The translations under genes were made by a program, and so were the position numbers. Positions 4,953 to 45,663 of a stretch of 64,000 nt of DNA are shown one piece after another; the first letter of the stretch is position 1; every line of letters begins with the position of its first letter. This DNA comes from Candidatus Omnitrophota bacterium (GTDB lineage: Bacteria > Omnitrophota > Omnitrophia > Omnitrophales > JACROU01), in the NCBI GenBank assembly GCA_029261035.1, contig JAJDCD010000023.1, positions 301,126-365,125 on the forward strand, read 5' to 3'. The notes below the pieces were generated by a model that saw only the letters and a program-made list of their open reading frames with translations, did no database searches and was not told the DNA's origin.

Positions 4953-6794
4953 ATGAAAAAACCTCTTTTGATTTTTGATGGGGCATGCCACTTTTGTTGT
5001 CGGTGGATTCAGTATTGGAAACGTTTAACAGAACCCCATATTAATTTTGCCCCCTATCAAGATGTGTCTTCGGAATATCCTCAGATTGAAAAAGAACAAT
5101 TCAAACAATCTATTATTTTAATTGATGAAACAGGGGCTTCTTACAAAGCTGCGCATGCTGTTTTTAAAATGCTGTCACGAGTGAAAAAGAAGCCATGGCT
5201 TCTAAACTTGTATTACCGACTTCCTGGGTTTAAGCAGGTATCCGAATTTGCCTACCAAGTTGTTGCTCGCTTTAGACCTTTCTTCTCTTTATGCACCGAT
5301 CTTTTTTGGGGAAAAGATGTAGGCCCTTTCAGTTACTCATCTGCGGCATGGCTTTTTTTAAGGGTCATGGGATTAATTTATGCGATTGCCTTTATATCCT
5401 TAGGAACTCAGATTTTGGGGTTGGTTGGGGCGGAGGGGATATTGCCCGTTAATTTATTGCTAGAGGCGGTTGAAACGCAGATGGGACTAGAGAAGTATCT
5501 GTTTTTCCCTACGCTGCTTTGGGTGAATACAAGTGATGCTTTTCTGCTTATTTTATGTTTTGGAGGAGCTATTTTATCCCTTTTATTGGCGTATGGTTTT
5601 GCTCCTGTTTTATTGTCCTTTGTGGTGTGGTTTTTTTATCTTTCTTTAACGGTGGCTGGGGGTGAGTTTTTAACATTTCAATGGGATATTTTGTTATTAG
5701 AAACAGGATTTTTAACTATTCTTTTAAGTTCTTTTCACCTTTCACCAAAGAAAGCTTCCGATCTTAATTATTCCATAGCTATTATTTGGTTGTTTCGGCT
5801 GTTGCTTTTTAAACTTATGTTTTTATCAGGGTCTGTAAAGTTATTGAGCGGAGATATTTCGTGGCAAAACCTGACAGCTCTTCTTTTTCATTATGAGACA
5901 CAACCCTTACCCACTGTATTGGGATGGTATGCGCATCAGTTGCCTGTATGGTTTCAAAAAATTTCTGTAGTTCTTATGTTTGTGATTGAATTAATAGTAC
6001 CTTTCTTTATTTTTGGGCCGAGAAGATTACGTTTAATTGCAGCGAGCTTATTTATCTTTTTCCAAATTTTAATTATGCTCACCGGAAACTATTGTTTTTT
6101 TAACTTGCTAGCGATTGCTTTATGCCTTTTTCTAATCGATGATGACTTCTTCAAAGGGGCCAGGCCCTTTAGGGGCCTGGCCCCTTTGACGGAGGGGGTT
6201 GGGCGGAAAAAATCAGGGGTATGGCCTCAATGGGTTATTCGACCTTTTTTTATTTTAGTTTTGCTTGTAACGATGTCTCAGTTTACAACTTTATTTAGAA
6301 TTTCGATTCCTTTTTCTCAACCCTTGATGATTGTTCGAGGTATTTTATCCCCTTTCTATATTACGAATACTTATGGACTGTTCTCGGTGATGACTCAGGG
6401 GAGGCCTGAGATTGAGGTTGAGGGATCTCGAGATGGAACACAATGGTTTCCGTATAAATTTAAATATAAACCAGATGATTTATCACAGAGGCCTCGCTTT
6501 ACCTTATTTCATCAACCTCGGCTTGATTGGCAGCTGTGGTTTGCGGCGTTAGGGCGTTTTCAAGATAATCCTTGGTTTTTTAATTTTTGTTCCCGTTTGC
6601 TGCAAGGTTCTCCAGAGGTTTTGAAGTTATTAGAAGAAAATCCTTTTGAGGAGCGCCCTCCTCGGTATGTGAGAGCTAGTCTTTACCAGTACCGTTTTTC
6701 TAATTTTAAAATAAAAGAAAAAACAGGAAATTGGTGGCAACGAGAATATCTAGGCAGGTACTCTCCCATCCTTCCTCCTATAGATAAATCATAG
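4953..6794 (+). CDS. Fusion protein: DCC1-like thiol-disulfide oxidoreductase (DUF393) N-terminus joined to a polytopic HTTM/lipase-maturation-factor-like membrane domain
   Basis: N-terminal LLIFDGACHFCCRWI (the FDGxCxxC motif of DUF393). It is followed by more than 8 predicted transmembrane helices and a C-terminal W-rich segment (WQLWFAALGRFQDNPWF), as in LMF/HTTM proteins. A GC-rich palindrome is inserted in-frame at 6154-6188. Confidence 0.5.
   Translation: MKKPLLIFDGACHFCCRWIQYWKRLTEPHINFAPYQDVSSEYPQIEKEQFKQSIILIDETGASYKAAHAVFKMLSRVKKKPWLLNLYYRLPGFKQVSEFAYQVVARFRPFFSLCTDLFWGKDVGPFSYSSAAWLFLRVMGLIYAIAFISLGTQILGLVGAEGILPVNLLLEAVETQMGLEKYLFFPTLLWVNTSDAFLLILCFGGAILSLLLAYGFAPVLLSFVVWFFYLSLTVAGGEFLTFQWDILLLETGFLTILLSSFHLSPKKASDLNYSIAIIWLFRLLLFKLMFLSGSVKLLSGDISWQNLTALLFHYETQPLPTVLGWYAHQLPVWFQKISVVLMFVIELIVPFFIFGPRRLRLIAASLFIFFQILIMLTGNYCFFNLLAIALCLFLIDDDFFKGARPFRGLAPLTEGVGRKKSGVWPQWVIRPFFILVLLVTMSQFTTLFRISIPFSQPLMIVRGILSPFYITNTYGLFSVMTQGRPEIEVEGSRDGTQWFPYKFKYKPDDLSQRPRFTLFHQPRLDWQLWFAALGRFQDNPWFFNFCSRLLQGSPEVLKLLEENPFEERPPRYVRASLYQYRFSNFKIKEKTGNWWQREYLGRYSPILPPIDKS
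6154..6188. repeat. Family E GC-rich palindrome inserted in-frame inside the DCC1/LMF-like CDS
   Basis: AAAGGGGCCAGGCCCTTTAGGGGCCTGGCCCCTTT. It encodes ...KGARPFRGLAPL.... Confidence 0.75.
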
Positions 6795-18333: not shown

Positions 18334-18412
18334 GCGTCGTCGGAAGAGTTGTTCCCGCAGCTCAGACAGCACAAAAGCAAAAGCCGCTTTTGTGAACTCG
18401 CTTCGGAAACAA
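18334..18412. repeat. Family C palindromic element (partial)
   Basis: GTTGTTCCCGCAGCTCAGACAGCACAAAAGC ... GCTTTTGTGAACTCGCTTCGGAAACAAC. Confidence 0.7.
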
Positions 18413-18453
18413 CTCCTCCTCCTTGTGGAGCACAATTTTGAGGGTGGAGGAGT

Positions 18454-18518
18454 GACAATTATTGGCATCGAGCCAATAATTGTTATAGGGTAACAGTATC
18501 GTCACATGTGTGACGATG
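18454..18518. repeat. H1 (CATCGAG-loop hairpin) plus H2' (CGTCACATGTGTGACG) modules
   Basis: ATTATTGGCATCGAGCCAATAAT ... ATCGTCACATGTGTGACGAT. Confidence 0.7.
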
Positions 18519-18725
18519 CTCTTTTGATGGTTTGAATAGCCTGGGCCCTTTATGCATACAGGCAGGCAAGGGTGTTTGGCCTAAATACCCTCTCGGCTTT
18601 ACAATCTGGTAGGGGGAGAGTATACTTATTTGTAAAGAACTGTAACTCTTTATTTGGTGATATGTTAACGAGTTGCTGGGTGATATGAAAGGATTAGGGG
18701 TAGATTTTTTACCCTCATAAACTAT

Positions 18726-29677: not shown

Positions 29678-29729
29678 AGTTATGTGCCAGGCCTGCCATT
29701 GAGGGGCCTGGCACATCGGGTACATAACT
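29678..29729. repeat. Family E palindrome
   Basis: AGTTATGTGCCAGGCCTGCCATTGAGGGGCCTGGCACATCGGGTACATAACT. Confidence 0.75.
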
Positions 29730-34871: not shown

Positions 34872-34977
34872 GTGCTCAGAGAATGTTCTCCGGCGCTCAG
34901 ACAGCACAAAAGTGACTGTCACCTAGGGTGACTATCACTTTTGTGAACTCGCTGCGGAGAACATTCTCTGAGCACTT
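34872..34977. repeat. Family C palindromic element (about 100 bp)
   Basis: GTGCTCAGAGAATGTTCTCCGGCGCTCAGACAGCACAAAAGTGACTGTCACC TAGG GTGACTATCACTTTTGTGAACTCGCTGCGGAGAACATTCTCTGAGCAC. Confidence 0.9.
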
Positions 34978-35007
34978 CTATTATTCGCTGGGGGTGTGTT
35001 AGGGCGT

Positions 35008-35081
35008 TGAAAACAAGAACGCCATCGAGGGTTCTTGTTTTCTTGGCATAAGGTGTTTCGTTATTGTGTAAATAACGAAAC
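35008..35081. repeat. H1 plus H2 modules downstream of a C element
   Basis: GAAAACAAGAACGCCATCGAGGGTTCTTGTTTTC ... GTTTCGTTATTGTGTAAATAACGAAAC. Confidence 0.8.
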
Positions 35082-35174
35082 GCGTTTTTGTTTTTGGAGT
35101 TTAGATTTGTTTCAGGGATAAAGGCGCTTGTTATTTGGAAGAGATTGTTAGGATTTAGTGAAGACAAAGAATAT

Positions 35175-39139: not shown

Positions 39140-39173
39140 TAGTGTGCCTGGTCTTTAGACCTGGCACACACTA
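39140..39173. repeat. Family E palindrome
   Basis: TAGTGTGCCTGGTCTTTAGACCTGGCACACACTA. Confidence 0.8.
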
Positions 39174-40624: not shown

Positions 40625-40710
40625 GGCTAGAGAATGTTCCCTGGCGCTCAGACAGCACAAAAATTGAGAAGCGATTTTTGTGAACTCGCGGCGGGGAACA
40701 TTCTCTAGCC
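40625..40710. repeat. Family C element
   Basis: GGCTAGAGAATGTTCCCTGGCGCTCAGACAGCACAAAAATTG ... TTTTTGTGAACTCGCGGCGGGGAACATTCTCTAGCC. Confidence 0.85.
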
Positions 40711-40742
40711 TTTTAAGTTATAAACTTTGGGTGGGGAGTGTT

Positions 40743-40815
40743 GAAAGCCGGAGCTGCATCGAGCAGCTCCGGCTTTCTTGGTTTAGGGTGTTTCGTTATT
40801 GTGTAAATAACGAAA
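40743..40815. repeat. H1 plus H2 modules
   Basis: GAAAGCCGGAGCTGCATCGAGCAGCTCCGGCTTTC ... GTTTCGTTATTGTGTAAATAACGAAAC. Confidence 0.8.
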
Positions 40816-40907
40816 CTCGTTTTTATTTTTTTGGTTTGGACTTGTTGTAGGGATAAAGGCATTTGTTGAATAGAGGGGTTGGTTTAGGATTTATTAAAGA
40901 TAAAGAA

Positions 40908-40996: not shown

Positions 40997-43900
40997 CTAT
41001 GCCGCTTGGGCGATTTGTCGTTGGGTGAAGGCTTGGGTGAAGAGTTGTTGTAGGTGGTCGCTTAGCTGTAAGATCCATCGGTCTTTGGCTTTTTTCCAGA
41101 TGCCGAAGAGGTCGCGTTTTCCTTGGAAGAGGAATTCGATGGCTGCTGTGGGAGCGTATAAACTTTGTTCTACACTTAAGATTTCTGTGGTGCTTGCGCT
41201 TACTTCTGTTTGACCCAGTAAGTGGATTGCGTGGGTATTTGTGTTTCGTTTTAAGCGGTGTGCGTAGTCGTTGAGGTGGTCTTTGCTTCCGAATCGAGCG
41301 TTTCCTTCTAATTCAGGAAGCGGGCTCCAGTCGTTTGTCTCTTTGAGAATGAGGATATCTCTTTTCTTTTGTTTGAGATGGTAGTTTAATTCTTCTAGTT
41401 CTGAAGGACTCATTTGTCTTAAGGTTTCGACTGAAATGATAAAGGTTATTTTGTTTTGAAGTTGATCTGCTCGGTTAAAAATTTGAGAAACCTTTCCGGA
41501 GTCTTTTAGTTTCCATGGAAGAGTAATTCCTAAACTAGACCCTTCAGACTTTTCTTTTTCTATTTCTATTTTCTTTATTACTTTTGAAAATTCTTTTCTC
41601 CATGTGGATGTGCCATGAGAAGAGACAAGGCCATACCCGAGAAGCATATTATCTCTTTCCATATCTTTAAGCAGTCTAAAATTTTTAGGATTTCTTATAT
41701 CCTCATCTGTTATAACAAGAAAAAAAGGAGGGGAGTCTATAGTTCTTTTGAATAACGTGGCAAGATCGTAAACGGTTGTATCTGAGGTTAGAAAGCCCGT
41801 AGATACCCCCGTATGAAATAAGGATATGACCAAGTCAAAGGAATCGCTTTTCATGGCTTTGTTGGCATAAACAGCGCTTCCTTTTTCAGCAATTTCAAAA
41901 TCTATTTGTAGATCCGAGCTAATGCGGTCTAAGCCTCTTTTCACTTTTTCTCGTAACTCTTGTTTAACGCCAACAAGAAGAATTTTGTAGCTGGGTTTTT
42001 TCTCTGAGGCATTTCCTAAACTATTTGCATCAGATTTAGGGGGATTTTTTGTTTGTGCATTTGAGCCCCATTTAGGTTTTTTTATCTTTTCAAGGTCATC
42101 AAGAATGGATTTCATTCGACCTGAATCCAGGTTGTGTTTGTGCATGTGGTCGTGATGAGAAGGGGATTCTTCAATTTGAGCTAATTTTTTTTGAAATGCC
42201 TGGATGTCTAGACCTGTCTTTTTTGGACTTTCTGGAGTAAGTATGATTGTTGGAATCTTAATCTCATCATTATCTAAGGTGGATAAAAGGGCATCAGCTG
42301 TGGTGTTCGTTTTAGTCCACCATCCTGTTGTTCCTGTAACAAAATAAGAAATAACAAGGTTGAACGGTGCAGAGCTTCCGTTTGCTTTTTTTATTGCTGT
42401 AACTGCTTTTTTATTCCCTGTTACAGTGACGATTTCAAATTCTCGTCCCAAAATTTGTCCCAACTTTCCAAGTTTTTCTACTATAAAGGGAGTGTCTGTG
42501 TTAAGCCCAACAACTAAAATTTTTTTAACTTGACCTAAACTAGAGGCTTTAATAACTTTGTGCACCTTTACCGTGTTTAAAAATACGATTTTGGTTGCGA
42601 TGGCATCGGGTGTAGAGCGGTGCATACGTGTCTGAACACCGAAAGTGGCAAGTAAAGCGCCGAGATTATGGCTGATGCCGGGATAGAAAGAACGAGAAGA
42701 GCTAAGGGTGTCATAGGCAAAAAAACGGGGTTTGTTTTTTGCTAAGCCGTCATCGGGATTTTCGATTTTAGAAAAGGGAGTTGGAAGTTCAGTTCCTTGG
42801 TTGACGACTTGAATACGAAAAGGGCCTAACCCAAAATGATCCATTTCTCTTTGTATCAGCAGAGAGTCATAAGGGGCGTTGTGCATTACGAGCAATGATT
42901 TTTTGTAACGTTTTAAAAATTCGAGTATGTCTGGAAAAGCCTTTTCCGCTGGAATTCCTTTTTCCAAAATTTCTTTTTTTGTGATCCCTGTAAACTCTTC
43001 AATGTTGAAAGGCATATTGAAATTACCATCGGGTTTAATCAAGAGGGATACGCGCTCAACTTCTTGGAGTCCTTTATAGGCAATCGCGGTAAGCTCTATA
43101 ATTCTTGATTCTCTAATATTAAGGCCAGTGCTTTCTAAATCGATGACTACGTATTCAAGGTCTCGAAGTGTTTCATCTAAAAGAAAATCAGGAAGCGTTT
43201 TGTTTTCAAGTTGAGCTTTATAGTAAGCAAGTTCGATTTCGTTGCTAGGGTCTCTTTGAAGTTTTTCCATAAAGGCTCTCTTGAGAATCGTCATTTTCGC
43301 TAAGAGAAGGCCTTCCACACGAGAGGGAGAGAGTTTCTGAAGGGTATTTCGATATAGTTCTTCAAAGACCAAAGGAGGTAAATCCTTAGGAGGGCTGACC
43401 ATGTTAAATAGGCGGACAACACTGTGGTCACTGACCGGTCTTGTTCGTGGTTTTCTTTCATGCTCTGACCATCGAATGATTTTAGTTTCATTCCCTGGAA
43501 GAACTAAAACGGAATGTTGTTTATTCGTTTCTTTTGGAGTGGAGGGCTTTATTTCAACTTCTTGGACTTGGGGGTCAGATTCAGGAACGAATACAGGAGT
43601 TTTTTCTGATGAGGGTTCTTCTTGAAGAGAAGCTTTTAAAAGGCGATTGATGGCCGCAAATTGTTTTTGTATTTCAACAATGCCTACATTGTCCACGCCT
43701 TTAATGTTTTGCTTGATATAAGGGATGTTGGGGACAAGGATGTTGCCAAACATAATCCCTTGAATCATTTGCCCAATTAAAGGAAAGCCAGCTTCTTTAA
43801 TTTTATTTGAGAAACGGCTTTGAATTCCTAATTCTTCTATTGGCAGATAATGAATTGCTTCAAGTTCTCCTTTTTTTGCAGCACTTTTAAGTTTGCCACC

Positions 43901-45427
43901 TAAAGGTTTACCTAGACTGGCTGCTTTTGTTTGTGCTTGTCTCCAAGCTTGCTGAAACTGTAAGCCTTTGGAATTTAAAAGCACAAATTCCTGAATGGAA
44001 CGAAGTGCTTTTGGAGAGGAAAGCGTTCTAGGGGCTGAAAGTGCAGCTTGCTCTGTAATGGTCCAATCGTCGTTGAGGCGCTTAGAATAAAATCGGTTTT
44101 CTGAAATTTGAGAGATGCGAGGGGAGATGGTGATAAAGGAAAAACCTTTTTCTTCTAATTTTTGTTCTACAAACTCTGTGTGAAAGCCGCCAGTGACAAG
44201 CACGCAGCTTAGTTTGTCGTTGGGAGTTTTGTTTTGTTCTACTTGTACGCGTTTGAAAAACTGATTCATCATGATGCTATCTCTAAGACGTGCTTTTTGG
44301 TAAAAATCATGAACGGCTAAAACAGCATTGTCTGACAAAGATTCTAAAAGAGGAGAGTCTGGAGAGATAAGGTCTAAATCTTTGCGTGTTGCTTTGAGTT
44401 GTAGTGTGTTTTTAATCGATCGAAATGTTTCTAGTTGGTCAAAGAACAGTTGATCTTCTTCTGGATCTAAATAACTTTCTTTTATGTTTTTAACTAAACG
44501 CTCCAGCTCTTCAAAAAGGTGTTGTCCTTGAATTTGTTTTAGTTTTTGTGTCAATTCCAGCTCGCTTCTAAGCTGAGGGGCATTGGCGAGGTCATCTTCT
44601 GAAATCTGTTCTCCTAATTGTTTTGCTTCTCCTAGAGTTAAGCCTAAGGAGCTGAGTTCTTGATCTAACTTTCCTTTATCTGCAAAAGCTTGCAATTGTT
44701 GTATCTTGCGAAATAAGGTTAAGTTCCGGTAGGAAGAGCTGGCGATGCTTTTGCTTTCTGCGTCAGCGAGAACGGACTCTATATAAGTTATCAGATCTAT
44801 TTTTTCTGCTTCAAATTTTCTTTCGTTGTCATAAAGAGAATTCAGTTTATCCGAGAAACGACTCTTCCTTTCTTTTTTTAATTGTTGTTCTTTCTGAATG
44901 ATGAACTGCATGATATCTGCTTGAAAAGAGCGAGCGTTGAAATACGCTTGTCTGTTTTGATTATATACTTCAGCATCTTCGAGACCAAAAAAAGAATAAT
45001 TAGAATCTGTGGTAGCAGCTAAGCTAACCCCATCCATAAGAAGATTGTCTAAGAGAAAACCGGCGATTGTTTCAAAGTTTTTATTTTTAGATAAGATTTC
45101 TAATGAGTCGGTGTAAAGTTCTCCAGAAGCTCCTTCAGCCATAATCAGATTGGTACCGAGTCGAGAGTGGAGGAAATCAATGATGTTAAAGATATTGCGA
45201 TGAGCTTCGGGTTGATCATGAGCCTCTTGGATATGAAATATGAGAGGAGCGCCTGGTTTTGAAACATGCATTTTTTTAATCGAACCCCATTCTGTAGGAA
45301 TGGGAGGAAAGGAAAAGCCGCCAACAGAAAGAGTGGCTGCAGGAGCTAGAGGAAGCTGTAAACCCATCATGGATATCATGATGAGAGAACAAGTAAGTTT
45401 TTTAAGTAGTTGTGACTTTTTGATCAT
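40997..45427 (-). CDS. Giant (about 1477 aa) secreted multidomain protein with an embedded DnaQ-like DEDDh 3'-5' exonuclease domain, paralog of 11304-17150
   Basis: Track ORF is 40997-45679. The probable start is the ATG at 45427 (MIKKSQLLKK... signal peptide), because upstream codons run through a C-family repeat. N-module motifs are LIFHIQEAHDQPEA and LVTGGFHTEFV. The exonuclease motifs Exo I VVIDLESTGL, Exo II LLVMHNAPYDSLL and Exo III MHRSTPDAIAT sit at about 42578-43160. Two internal roughly 90-aa repeats. C-terminus ...QAFTQRQIAQAA. Confidence 0.8.
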   Translation of the reverse strand: MIKKSQLLKKLTCSLIMISMMGLQLPLAPAATLSVGGFSFPPIPTEWGSIKKMHVSKPGAPLIFHIQEAHDQPEAHRNIFNIIDFLHSRLGTNLIMAEGASGELYTDSLEILSKNKNFETIAGFLLDNLLMDGVSLAATTDSNYSFFGLEDAEVYNQNRQAYFNARSFQADIMQFIIQKEQQLKKERKSRFSDKLNSLYDNERKFEAEKIDLITYIESVLADAESKSIASSSYRNLTLFRKIQQLQAFADKGKLDQELSSLGLTLGEAKQLGEQISEDDLANAPQLRSELELTQKLKQIQGQHLFEELERLVKNIKESYLDPEEDQLFFDQLETFRSIKNTLQLKATRKDLDLISPDSPLLESLSDNAVLAVHDFYQKARLRDSIMMNQFFKRVQVEQNKTPNDKLSCVLVTGGFHTEFVEQKLEEKGFSFITISPRISQISENRFYSKRLNDDWTITEQAALSAPRTLSSPKALRSIQEFVLLNSKGLQFQQAWRQAQTKAASLGKPLGGKLKSAAKKGELEAIHYLPIEELGIQSRFSNKIKEAGFPLIGQMIQGIMFGNILVPNIPYIKQNIKGVDNVGIVEIQKQFAAINRLLKASLQEEPSSEKTPVFVPESDPQVQEVEIKPSTPKETNKQHSVLVLPGNETKIIRWSEHERKPRTRPVSDHSVVRLFNMVSPPKDLPPLVFEELYRNTLQKLSPSRVEGLLLAKMTILKRAFMEKLQRDPSNEIELAYYKAQLENKTLPDFLLDETLRDLEYVVIDLESTGLNIRESRIIELTAIAYKGLQEVERVSLLIKPDGNFNMPFNIEEFTGITKKEILEKGIPAEKAFPDILEFLKRYKKSLLVMHNAPYDSLLIQREMDHFGLGPFRIQVVNQGTELPTPFSKIENPDDGLAKNKPRFFAYDTLSSSRSFYPGISHNLGALLATFGVQTRMHRSTPDAIATKIVFLNTVKVHKVIKASSLGQVKKILVVGLNTDTPFIVEKLGKLGQILGREFEIVTVTGNKKAVTAIKKANGSSAPFNLVISYFVTGTTGWWTKTNTTADALLSTLDNDEIKIPTIILTPESPKKTGLDIQAFQKKLAQIEESPSHHDHMHKHNLDSGRMKSILDDLEKIKKPKWGSNAQTKNPPKSDANSLGNASEKKPSYKILLVGVKQELREKVKRGLDRISSDLQIDFEIAEKGSAVYANKAMKSDSFDLVISLFHTGVSTGFLTSDTTVYDLATLFKRTIDSPPFFLVITDEDIRNPKNFRLLKDMERDNMLLGYGLVSSHGTSTWRKEFSKVIKKIEIEKEKSEGSSLGITLPWKLKDSGKVSQIFNRADQLQNKITFIISVETLRQMSPSELEELNYHLKQKKRDILILKETNDWSPLPELEGNARFGSKDHLNDYAHRLKRNTNTHAIHLLGQTEVSASTTEILSVEQSLYAPTAAIEFLFQGKRDLFGIWKKAKDRWILQLSDHLQQLFTQAFTQRQIAQAA

Positions 45428-45546
45428 AAGCGTATGACTCAATAGTCTTCCGTGAAGGGATTTTTCTGTCCGTGAGCTAACTATCCTAGTCGAGATTGTT
45501 TGGCTGGTCAAGGGGATTGATGGGGGCGCGTATAGGGGCCGTTGTT

Positions 45547-45628
45547 GGCCATAGGATGTTCTCCGGCGCTCAGACATGCTCGTCTGGAAAAAGACTGCGC
45601 AACTCGCGGCGGAGAACATCCTATGGCC
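45547..45628. repeat. Family C element (divergent core)
   Basis: GGCCATAGGATGTTCTCCGGCGCTCAGACATGCTCG ... GCGCAACTCGCGGCGGAGAACATCCTATGGCC. Confidence 0.8.
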
Positions 45629-45663
45629 TTTTATGTTATACGCTGAGTGGGGGTTAGAGGGTT

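Follow-up and report, generated by a model that had tools for sequence, protein, structure and literature searches.

A GC-rich hairpin within the lipase maturation factor gene of an Omnitrophota bacterium is probably a copy of a lineage-specific palindromic repeat

How does a long, GC-rich hairpin come to lie in frame within the gene of a membrane protein? The question is raised by a 64,000-nucleotide stretch of a Candidatus Omnitrophota genome (contig JAJDCD010000023.1, positions 301,126 to 365,125; hereafter the window, to which coordinates refer unless another locus is named). In it, the 35-mer AAAGGGGCCAGGCCCTTTAGGGGCCTGGCCCCTTT was found at 6153-6187, inside the open reading frame (ORF) 4953-6794 on the plus strand, which encodes a lipase maturation factor (LMF) protein. 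An earlier reading of the sequence alone, here called the original prediction, had placed the element one base further to the right, at 6154-6188, and had taken it for a perfect 35-bp palindrome of a mobile repeat family inserted into the gene. The data obtained here suggest, with a probability of about 0.6, that the hairpin derives from a low-copy, lineage-specific palindromic repeat, of which it is a slightly diverged copy, and that it was copied into a permissive loop of the LMF gene, where it is tolerated. Judging from the alignments, native loop codons seem to have given way to the element, which did not merely lengthen the loop.

The 35-mer differs from its own reverse complement by three central mismatches, and its real form is a perfect inverted repeat rather than a perfect palindrome. 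This repeat measures 15 bp, or 17 bp when the flanking TC/GA is counted (6151-6189). The left arm (6151-6167, TCAAAGGGGCCAGGCCC) encodes (F)KGARP and the right arm (6173-6189, GGGCCTGGCCCCTTTGA) encodes (R)GLAPL(T), and they enclose the 5-nucleotide loop TTTAG (6168-6172); in RNA, the first U and the last G of this loop may pair, giving an 18-pair stem with a 3-nucleotide loop. Each arm is nearly self-complementary (GGGGCC-W-GGCCCC), so the element can also be read as two back-to-back palindromic units of 13 nucleotides, and the 35-nucleotide core is made up of two self-palindromic GGGGCC-W-GGCCC(C) units with AAA and TTT at the sides. An extended, imperfect palindrome spans 6146-6194, with 22-nucleotide arms that are complementary at 20/22 positions and an outer part that overlaps native-looking FF codons. 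The hairpin is far above chance expectation. Shuffling the window 20 times gave maximum perfect stems of 8 to 13 bp, compared with 17 bp observed, and the 79-nucleotide context folded at -48 kcal/mol as RNA (z = -5.9) and at -24 kcal/mol as DNA (z = -6.3). Among the 19 perfect stems of at least 9 bp in the window, the hairpin at 6151-6189 was the longest, the most stable and the sole GC-rich intragenic one.

The host gene (4953-6794) encodes a 613-residue membrane protein composed of a DCC1-like thiol-disulfide oxidoreductase and a lipase maturation factor (LMF1 and LMF1_C; Pfam PF04134, PF06762 and PF25179), with syntenic orthologs in two relatives. These relatives are known from the metagenome contigs Ga0315338_1000003 (the closest relative) and Ga0187892_10000109 (the second relative). 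The ORF is colinear end to end with thousands of homologs, the best of which shows 53% identity, and the gene is therefore intact across the hairpin. The in-frame position given in the original prediction was borne out by this colinearity, which continues with DCC1-like, LMF1 and LMF1_C homologs on both sides. Its placement in a predicted loop also held. The hairpin is translated as (F)KGARPFRGLAPL(T) and falls within a variable hydrophilic loop (residues 398-423, DFFKGARPFRGLAPLTEGVGRKKSGV; 6144-6221, plus strand), which alignment and hydropathy place after a conserved LxDD and before a conserved WP, with hydrophobic segments at residues 372-400 and 423-452 at either side. The GC content was, as claimed, far above that of the flanking coding sequence, at 28/39 versus 0.39 for the gene, making the hairpin the top 39-nucleotide coding stretch of the window by GC. 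Its 13 codons represented the most atypical synonymous choice among the 17,911 13-codon stretches in the window, and the codon usage of either arm alone was within the 0.4 to 5% tail. As a separate observation on this region, a conserved G-V-W-P motif is encoded 28 nucleotides 3' of the hairpin, and its native codons (GGGGTATGGCCTC, 6216-6228) match the repeat unit GGGGYCWGRCCCC at 11/13 positions; the match is within chance (0.9 expected in the window) but could have served as microhomology for copying-in.

By comparison with its homologs, the hairpin is judged to be lineage-specific and not ancestral. Six LMF genes lack it, namely those of the two syntenic relatives and of four further homologs, and no hairpin was present in the loop of the five homologous genes compared as DNA. 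The 21.8-kb locus that holds the LMF ortholog of the second relative was also free of any GC-rich hairpin. At the protein level, 361 sequences were compared, and the peptide words of the element were found in the loop of the window protein alone and in none of 119 other LMF homologs. By the condition set in the original prediction, under which the same peptide with normal codon composition in distant relatives would have meant an ancestral origin, these comparisons speak against ancestry.

Copies of the element were found elsewhere in related genomes. A scan of 241 million metagenome records with the pattern AAAGGGGCCWGGCCC-N3-9-GGGCCWGGCCCCTTT yielded seven loci. One of these (L123) is on Ga0187892_10000109, a 193-kb contig that also bears the syntenic LMF ortholog P0018, and two others (L119 and L124) are both on another large contig from the same sample; in total, three strict copies, plus variants, were present on 521 kb of contigs of this second relative. 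The related copies read AAAAAGGGGCCAGGCCCC-T(C/A)A-GGGGCCTGGCCCCTTTTT, with the general form A3-5 GGGGCCAGGCCCC NNN GGGGCCTGGCCCC T3-5, and in the alignment the window core differs from them at 2/35 positions (33/35 identity). In the related genomes, the repeat is placed mostly between genes. The second relative has a one-unit version, AAAAAGCGGCCTGGCCCCTTTT, immediately behind the gene that lies downstream of LMF, in the gap between a convergent gene pair, and in a third, more distant relative two units 12 nucleotides apart overlap the end of ispH, with one unit read as KGPGPF. The description of the hairpin as an in-frame member of a palindromic repeat family was therefore borne out by the copies in related genomes.

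The siting within coding sequence is also seen in another gene. At L123, the gene for the glutamate synthase large subunit (gltB, minus strand) contains two in-frame elements, at L123 1918-1960 and 2877-2924. One belongs to the family of the window hairpin and is read as KRGQAPEGPGPFL; the other, about 917 bp away, is the variant GGGGTCAGACCCC, with a 22-bp stem in 48 nucleotides, compensated changes in both arms relative to the family and an in-frame reading of RKRGQTPLKGSDPFF. The elements encode 16 residues at the first gltB site and 13 at the second. Set against the third relative's gltB and three solved sequences of GltB, the first site was longer by a net +1 to +2 residues, and the second by +3 to +6.

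According to the original prediction, the element had added roughly 12 codons to the LMF gene, which does not agree with the length of the loop. From DD to WP the loop has 26 residues, equal to the median of 114 homologs (range, 16 to 87), and the anchors TGNYxFFN and YGLF are 89 residues apart, equal to the median of 116 homologs. The loops of the syntenic orthologs P0024 and P0018 have 18 and 22 residues, respectively, so that the window loop is longer by 8 and 4 residues. In the profile of the other homologs, all hairpin-coded residues occupy match columns, and the window protein shows a 2-residue deletion. Removal of 36 or 39 nucleotides led to a loss of about 19 bits against the family profile and of 10 to 13 bits against a profile of the 30 nearest homologs, and the loop of 13 residues left after removing 12 to 13 codons was shorter than in any of the 114 homologs. 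The agreement of individual residues with the profile must be read with care. The column of P405 has P in 84/114 homologs and that of R407 has R/K in 78/114, but 2,000 random hairpins of the same composition scored 166.6 ± 2.0 bits versus 168.4 bits for the real hairpin (P = 0.18), and because random hairpins score equally well, the P/R/K/F matches are not evidence of ancestry. The three in-frame copies (one in LMF and two in gltB) encode 13 to 16 residues, while their host loops are just 1 to 8 residues longer than those of homologs. On these length comparisons, all three look as if they had been written over native loop codons.

The repeat is built from two GGGGCC-W-GGCCCC units, each self-complementary and set one against the other, with an A-run and a T-run at the sides, over about 35 to 39 bp, and its shape resembles that of a two-way transcription terminator. 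Under the preferred reading of a copied and tolerated repeat, one copy would have been written into the part of the LMF gene coding for a poorly conserved hydrophilic loop between membrane segments, arriving by copying from another locus. The element measures about 39 bp (13 codons) and is translated as KGARPFRGLAPL; since it is divisible by three in length and open in four of six frames, the gene stays intact, and the element would be tolerated for the same reason. The loop can be regarded as a permissive site because its length among homologs spans 16 to 87 residues. Selection for a function of the hairpin within the gene is improbable, and it would simply be tolerated; with a T-run just three nucleotides long, it could at most terminate transcription weakly or cause a pause in the mRNA.

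Several findings weigh against this reading. The metagenome scan pattern fixes 30/35 positions, so the sequence identity among the matches is partly built in, and for this reason the independent evidence is where the matches fall, namely on the contigs of a relative out of hundreds of gigabases. The 64-kb window yielded no second copy when up to 3 mismatches were allowed; a partial match at 18537-18551, which is without a partner arm, was taken as chance. No transposase family was detected among the 30 window ORFs scanned, and the remaining window ORFs have syntenic housekeeping counterparts in the relatives. At the flanks of the element, no direct repeat or target-site duplication was visible. 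Finally, because the loop is of median length and the deletion costs 10 to 19 bits, plain insertion is not what happened, and the same applies to both gltB sites of the relative. The view that the hairpin is direct evidence of recent mobility is too strong in the light of these results: mobility is deduced, and neither an empty-site allele nor a second copy in 64 kb nor a transposase was seen.

The possibility that the hairpin is selectively kept, whether as a translation-lag terminator or pause, as an RNase target or as a binding site for a GGGGCC-W-GGCCCC protein, is compatible with either origin and was considered unlikely. Selection would account for a stem that is still perfect across 17 bp, for the compensated changes in both arms of the gltB variant and for the presence of two copies in one gene of a genome otherwise poor in hairpins, and the intergenic copies are terminator-like in shape, with their A-run and T-run. 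However, the orthologous site is empty in both syntenic relatives. Furthermore, the stem is followed by TTTGACGG, with a T-run of TTT versus T5 in the copies of the relatives, which is short of the roughly 5 T or more after the stem of an intrinsic terminator, and the hairpin was not in the list produced by the terminator scan. A search of Rfam with the hairpin gave nothing at gathering thresholds and, below threshold, generic hairpins such as miRNA precursors and a plastid 3' untranslated region stem. A role as a translation-sensitive pause or terminator is possible. A promoter-like TTGACG-16-AAAAAT at 6186-6213 was ignored, as the count of such sites in the region was at shuffle level. Quite doubtful is a broader scheme in which terminator-like palindromes would be pasted over target DNA of similar length with no dedicated transposase, for example by microhomology-guided ectopic template switching, rewriting loops in LMF and twice in gltB; once inside genes, such palindromes might terminate transcription when translation lags.

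A purely local origin, for which no repeat family would be needed, was judged very improbable. In this case, the nascent strand would have folded on CCC-TTTAG-GGG and added the 12 nucleotides AAAGGGGCCAGG (KGAR) by template switching, an event that can create long perfect stems in one step (PMC8794818). The perfection of the inverted repeat and the lack of a net gain of 13 codons are as expected from such an event, KGAR is the best 4-codon deletion by the 30-nearest-homolog profile, and the predicted ancestor, DDDFFPFRG..., has a loop of 22 residues, equal to that of P0018, and fits the DD-x-F-W-P-x-R motif of the nearest homologs. The advantage of KGAR amounts to just 1.3 bits, however, the profile is fitted equally well by the random hairpins of like composition, and rare codons are found in both arms. 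Local copying within LMF also cannot explain why the same 35-nucleotide sequence recurs (33/35) at unrelated loci in related genomes; at most, local fold-back could account for how a single imported unit became two. It is scarcely credible that the loop is ancestral and palindromic by accident, or that the hairpin is an assembly artefact. Although its residues, P405 and R407 included, sit in match columns of the family profile, neither the peptide nor a hairpin is present at the site in any homolog, no other stretch of the window is as atypical in its codon usage, and a perfect stem of 17 bp was never seen in shuffles. The reading frame and the homology are unbroken on both sides, and independent assemblies of relatives carry the element, in-frame copies included. 

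Within the window, the hairpin had been matched to a set of intergenic palindromes termed family E, but the link is weak and extends to an inner stem of 8 to 9 nucleotides only. The inner 8-mer GCCAGGCC is common to the LMF hairpin and the copies at 29682 and 59957, but the inner stem of the copy at 39143 has diverged, and the hairpin at 11118 is unrelated and was rejected as a family E member. Family E is a true family of three copies (29682-29716; 39143-39170, in the opposite orientation; and 59957-59983), each with about 70 nucleotides of flank and placed after genes or between divergent genes. Its features are a hairpin (A/G)TGTGCCAGGCC...GGCCTGGCACA(T/C), followed by the flank GGGTAYATRACT and, about 25 nucleotides on, an ATGAATMTAAC box. 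The LMF hairpin has neither the conserved flank nor the outer stem of family E. A distant sub-family link between the two via a compensated outer stem (GGGG/CCCC versus TGTG/CACA) is conceivable.

Other repeats were observed both within and beyond the window. An intergenic module some 200 nucleotides long occurs seven times in the window (18360-18530, 34890-35100, 40640-40830, 45530-45710, 47790-48000, 54440-54660 and 59080-59260), with the conserved blocks GCTCAGACAGCACAAAAG...CTTTTGTGAACTCGC followed by GGGTG..GT. Its stems vary between copies with the pairing kept: the central hairpin has a conserved ATCGAG loop and compensated changes in 9/17 predicted pairs, and the outer stem covaries (45547/45606 versus 54456/54523). 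Some copies terminate in GTTTCGTTATT-gtgta-AATAACGAAAC. The module had no Rfam match and could represent either a structured RNA in several copies, so far undescribed, or a composite repeat. In the closest relative, no GGGGCC-type hairpin was found in 37 kb of Ga0315338_1000003 (loci L131 and L132), and another intergenic palindrome family, AGGGACGGTTCTAGA-nnn-TCTAGAACCGTCCCT, was present in three copies in 22 kb (L131 6403-6437, 7788-7822 and 13070-13102). Palindrome families seem to turn over between related genomes. Genome contigs were scanned with the pattern GGGGCCWGGCCC-N3-9-GGGCCWGGCCCC, and the matches listed (L001-L118) were dominated by a hairpin repeat of high-GC metagenome-assembled genomes (MAGs) of Actinomycetes/Gaiellales. 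Among the matches listed, this repeat comprised abundant pairs of GGGGCC-W-GGCCCC units with CG-rich loops such as CGCATGCG, and some of these formed regular arrays, with four copies at 120-bp spacing (L060 40-430), or tandem repeats of 19 nucleotides (L016 1536-1605). It is probably an unrelated, convergent family similar to the repetitive extragenic palindromic (REP) sequences.

The genomic setting was examined with the proteins IspH and PepP. For both, the closest match was on the 2.17-Mb metagenome contig Ga0315338_1000003 (75% and 73% identity, respectively), followed by a small group of contigs, and the nearest named IspH matches were Candidatus Omnitrophica MAGs at 65 to 67%. No named Chlamydiae occurred in the best 120 matches of either protein. 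Gene order is shared with Ga0315338_1000003 and Ga0187892_10000109 and includes CdaA, a peptidoglycan (PG)-binding protein, LMF, an Exo_endo_phos protein, PepP, a giant ORF and IspH, and the window also encodes enzymes of haem, folate, purine and tryptophan synthesis. Given these relatives, the gene order and the biosynthetic enzymes, the earlier description of the genome as chlamydia-like is not supported, and a lineage related to Omnitrophica is the likelier placement. Exact look-ups gave no record of the host protein or its neighbour and placed IspH only on a 3-kb Logan contig; the sample SRR15505518 contains this organism. Very large ORFs are located at 11304-17150 (1,948 residues) and 40997-45679 (1,560 residues) of the window. 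The closest relative (L131 1-6205) encodes a product of >6,600 residues with many protein-kinase domains and another of 2,308 residues. The 1,948-residue ORF is about 30% identical to its syntenic counterpart, compared with 60 to 80% for neighbouring genes.

Palindromic repeats inside genes have been documented previously and are most abundant in Opitutus terrae, a bacterium of the Planctomycetes-Verrucomicrobia-Chlamydiae (PVC) group, and in Rickettsia conorii (Di Nocera et al. 2013, PMC3733652). The element resembles REPs, which are short (20 to 40 bp), GC-rich stem-loops dispersed mainly downstream of genes, with sub-families that have compensated stem changes and with occasional in-frame copies coding for 10 to 30 residues (PMC3733652). 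Its size of 35 to 39 bp, with a perfect stem of 15 to 17 bp and a loop of 5 nucleotides, is within the REP range. It differs in lacking the conserved GTAG/CGTC end tag, the flanks of eight related copies sharing none; a CGTC is present on the minus strand beside the window stem (GACG, 6188-6191) and was dropped, since it is not conserved in the family. Further differences are the stems of 15 to 20 bp versus the usual 6 to 13 bp of REPs, arms that are each palindromic in themselves, the A/T runs at the sides, a low copy number where measurable (3 strict copies in 521 kb) and intragenic copies almost without net gain in length. No REP-associated tyrosine transposase (RAYT) was seen among the 30 window ORFs scanned.

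Rickettsia palindromic elements (RPEs) are likewise palindromic repeats read in frame inside conserved genes, as was found here. RPEs sit at surface or loop positions of otherwise conserved proteins, and the classic RPE-1, of about 100 to 150 bp, adds 30 to 50 residues as a clear insertion. To our knowledge, RPEs are confined to Rickettsia. The present element is from another lineage, is 35 to 39 bp rather than some 100 to 150 bp in length, and shows a replacement-like pattern instead of added residues. The shorter RPE-4 and RPE-6 are CGTC-tagged REPs (PMC3733652). Template-switch mutations can produce perfect inverted repeats in one step by length-neutral replacement, also in coding DNA (Loytynoja and Goldman 2017, PMC5453318; Monttinen and Loytynoja 2022, PMC8794818), but they copy nearby sequence, whereas the element recurs (33/35) at unrelated loci and in other genomes. 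Ectopic template switching is one possible way in which it was pasted in. The GC-rich stem with an A-run and a T-run, and the position of the intergenic family members after or between genes, are reminiscent of intrinsic terminators, from which the window copy differs in being intragenic and in having three T after the stem. MITEs (miniature inverted-repeat transposable elements) have terminal inverted repeats and a target-site duplication and are usually 50 to 500 bp long, in contrast to the 35 to 39 bp and the lack of a flanking direct repeat observed here.

Hence, intragenic palindromic repeats as such are a known phenomenon, and what is new in the present case is a repeat outside the tagged REP families that seems to overwrite loop codons. 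For annotation, the results mean that the LMF gene is intact and that the hairpin is not an assembly error. The phenomenon is extended to an uncultured and little-studied lineage, with the Omnitrophica as its nearest named relatives. If true, the replacement of loop codons would suggest copying by some means other than classical transposition and would provide a simple route to the rewriting of protein loops.

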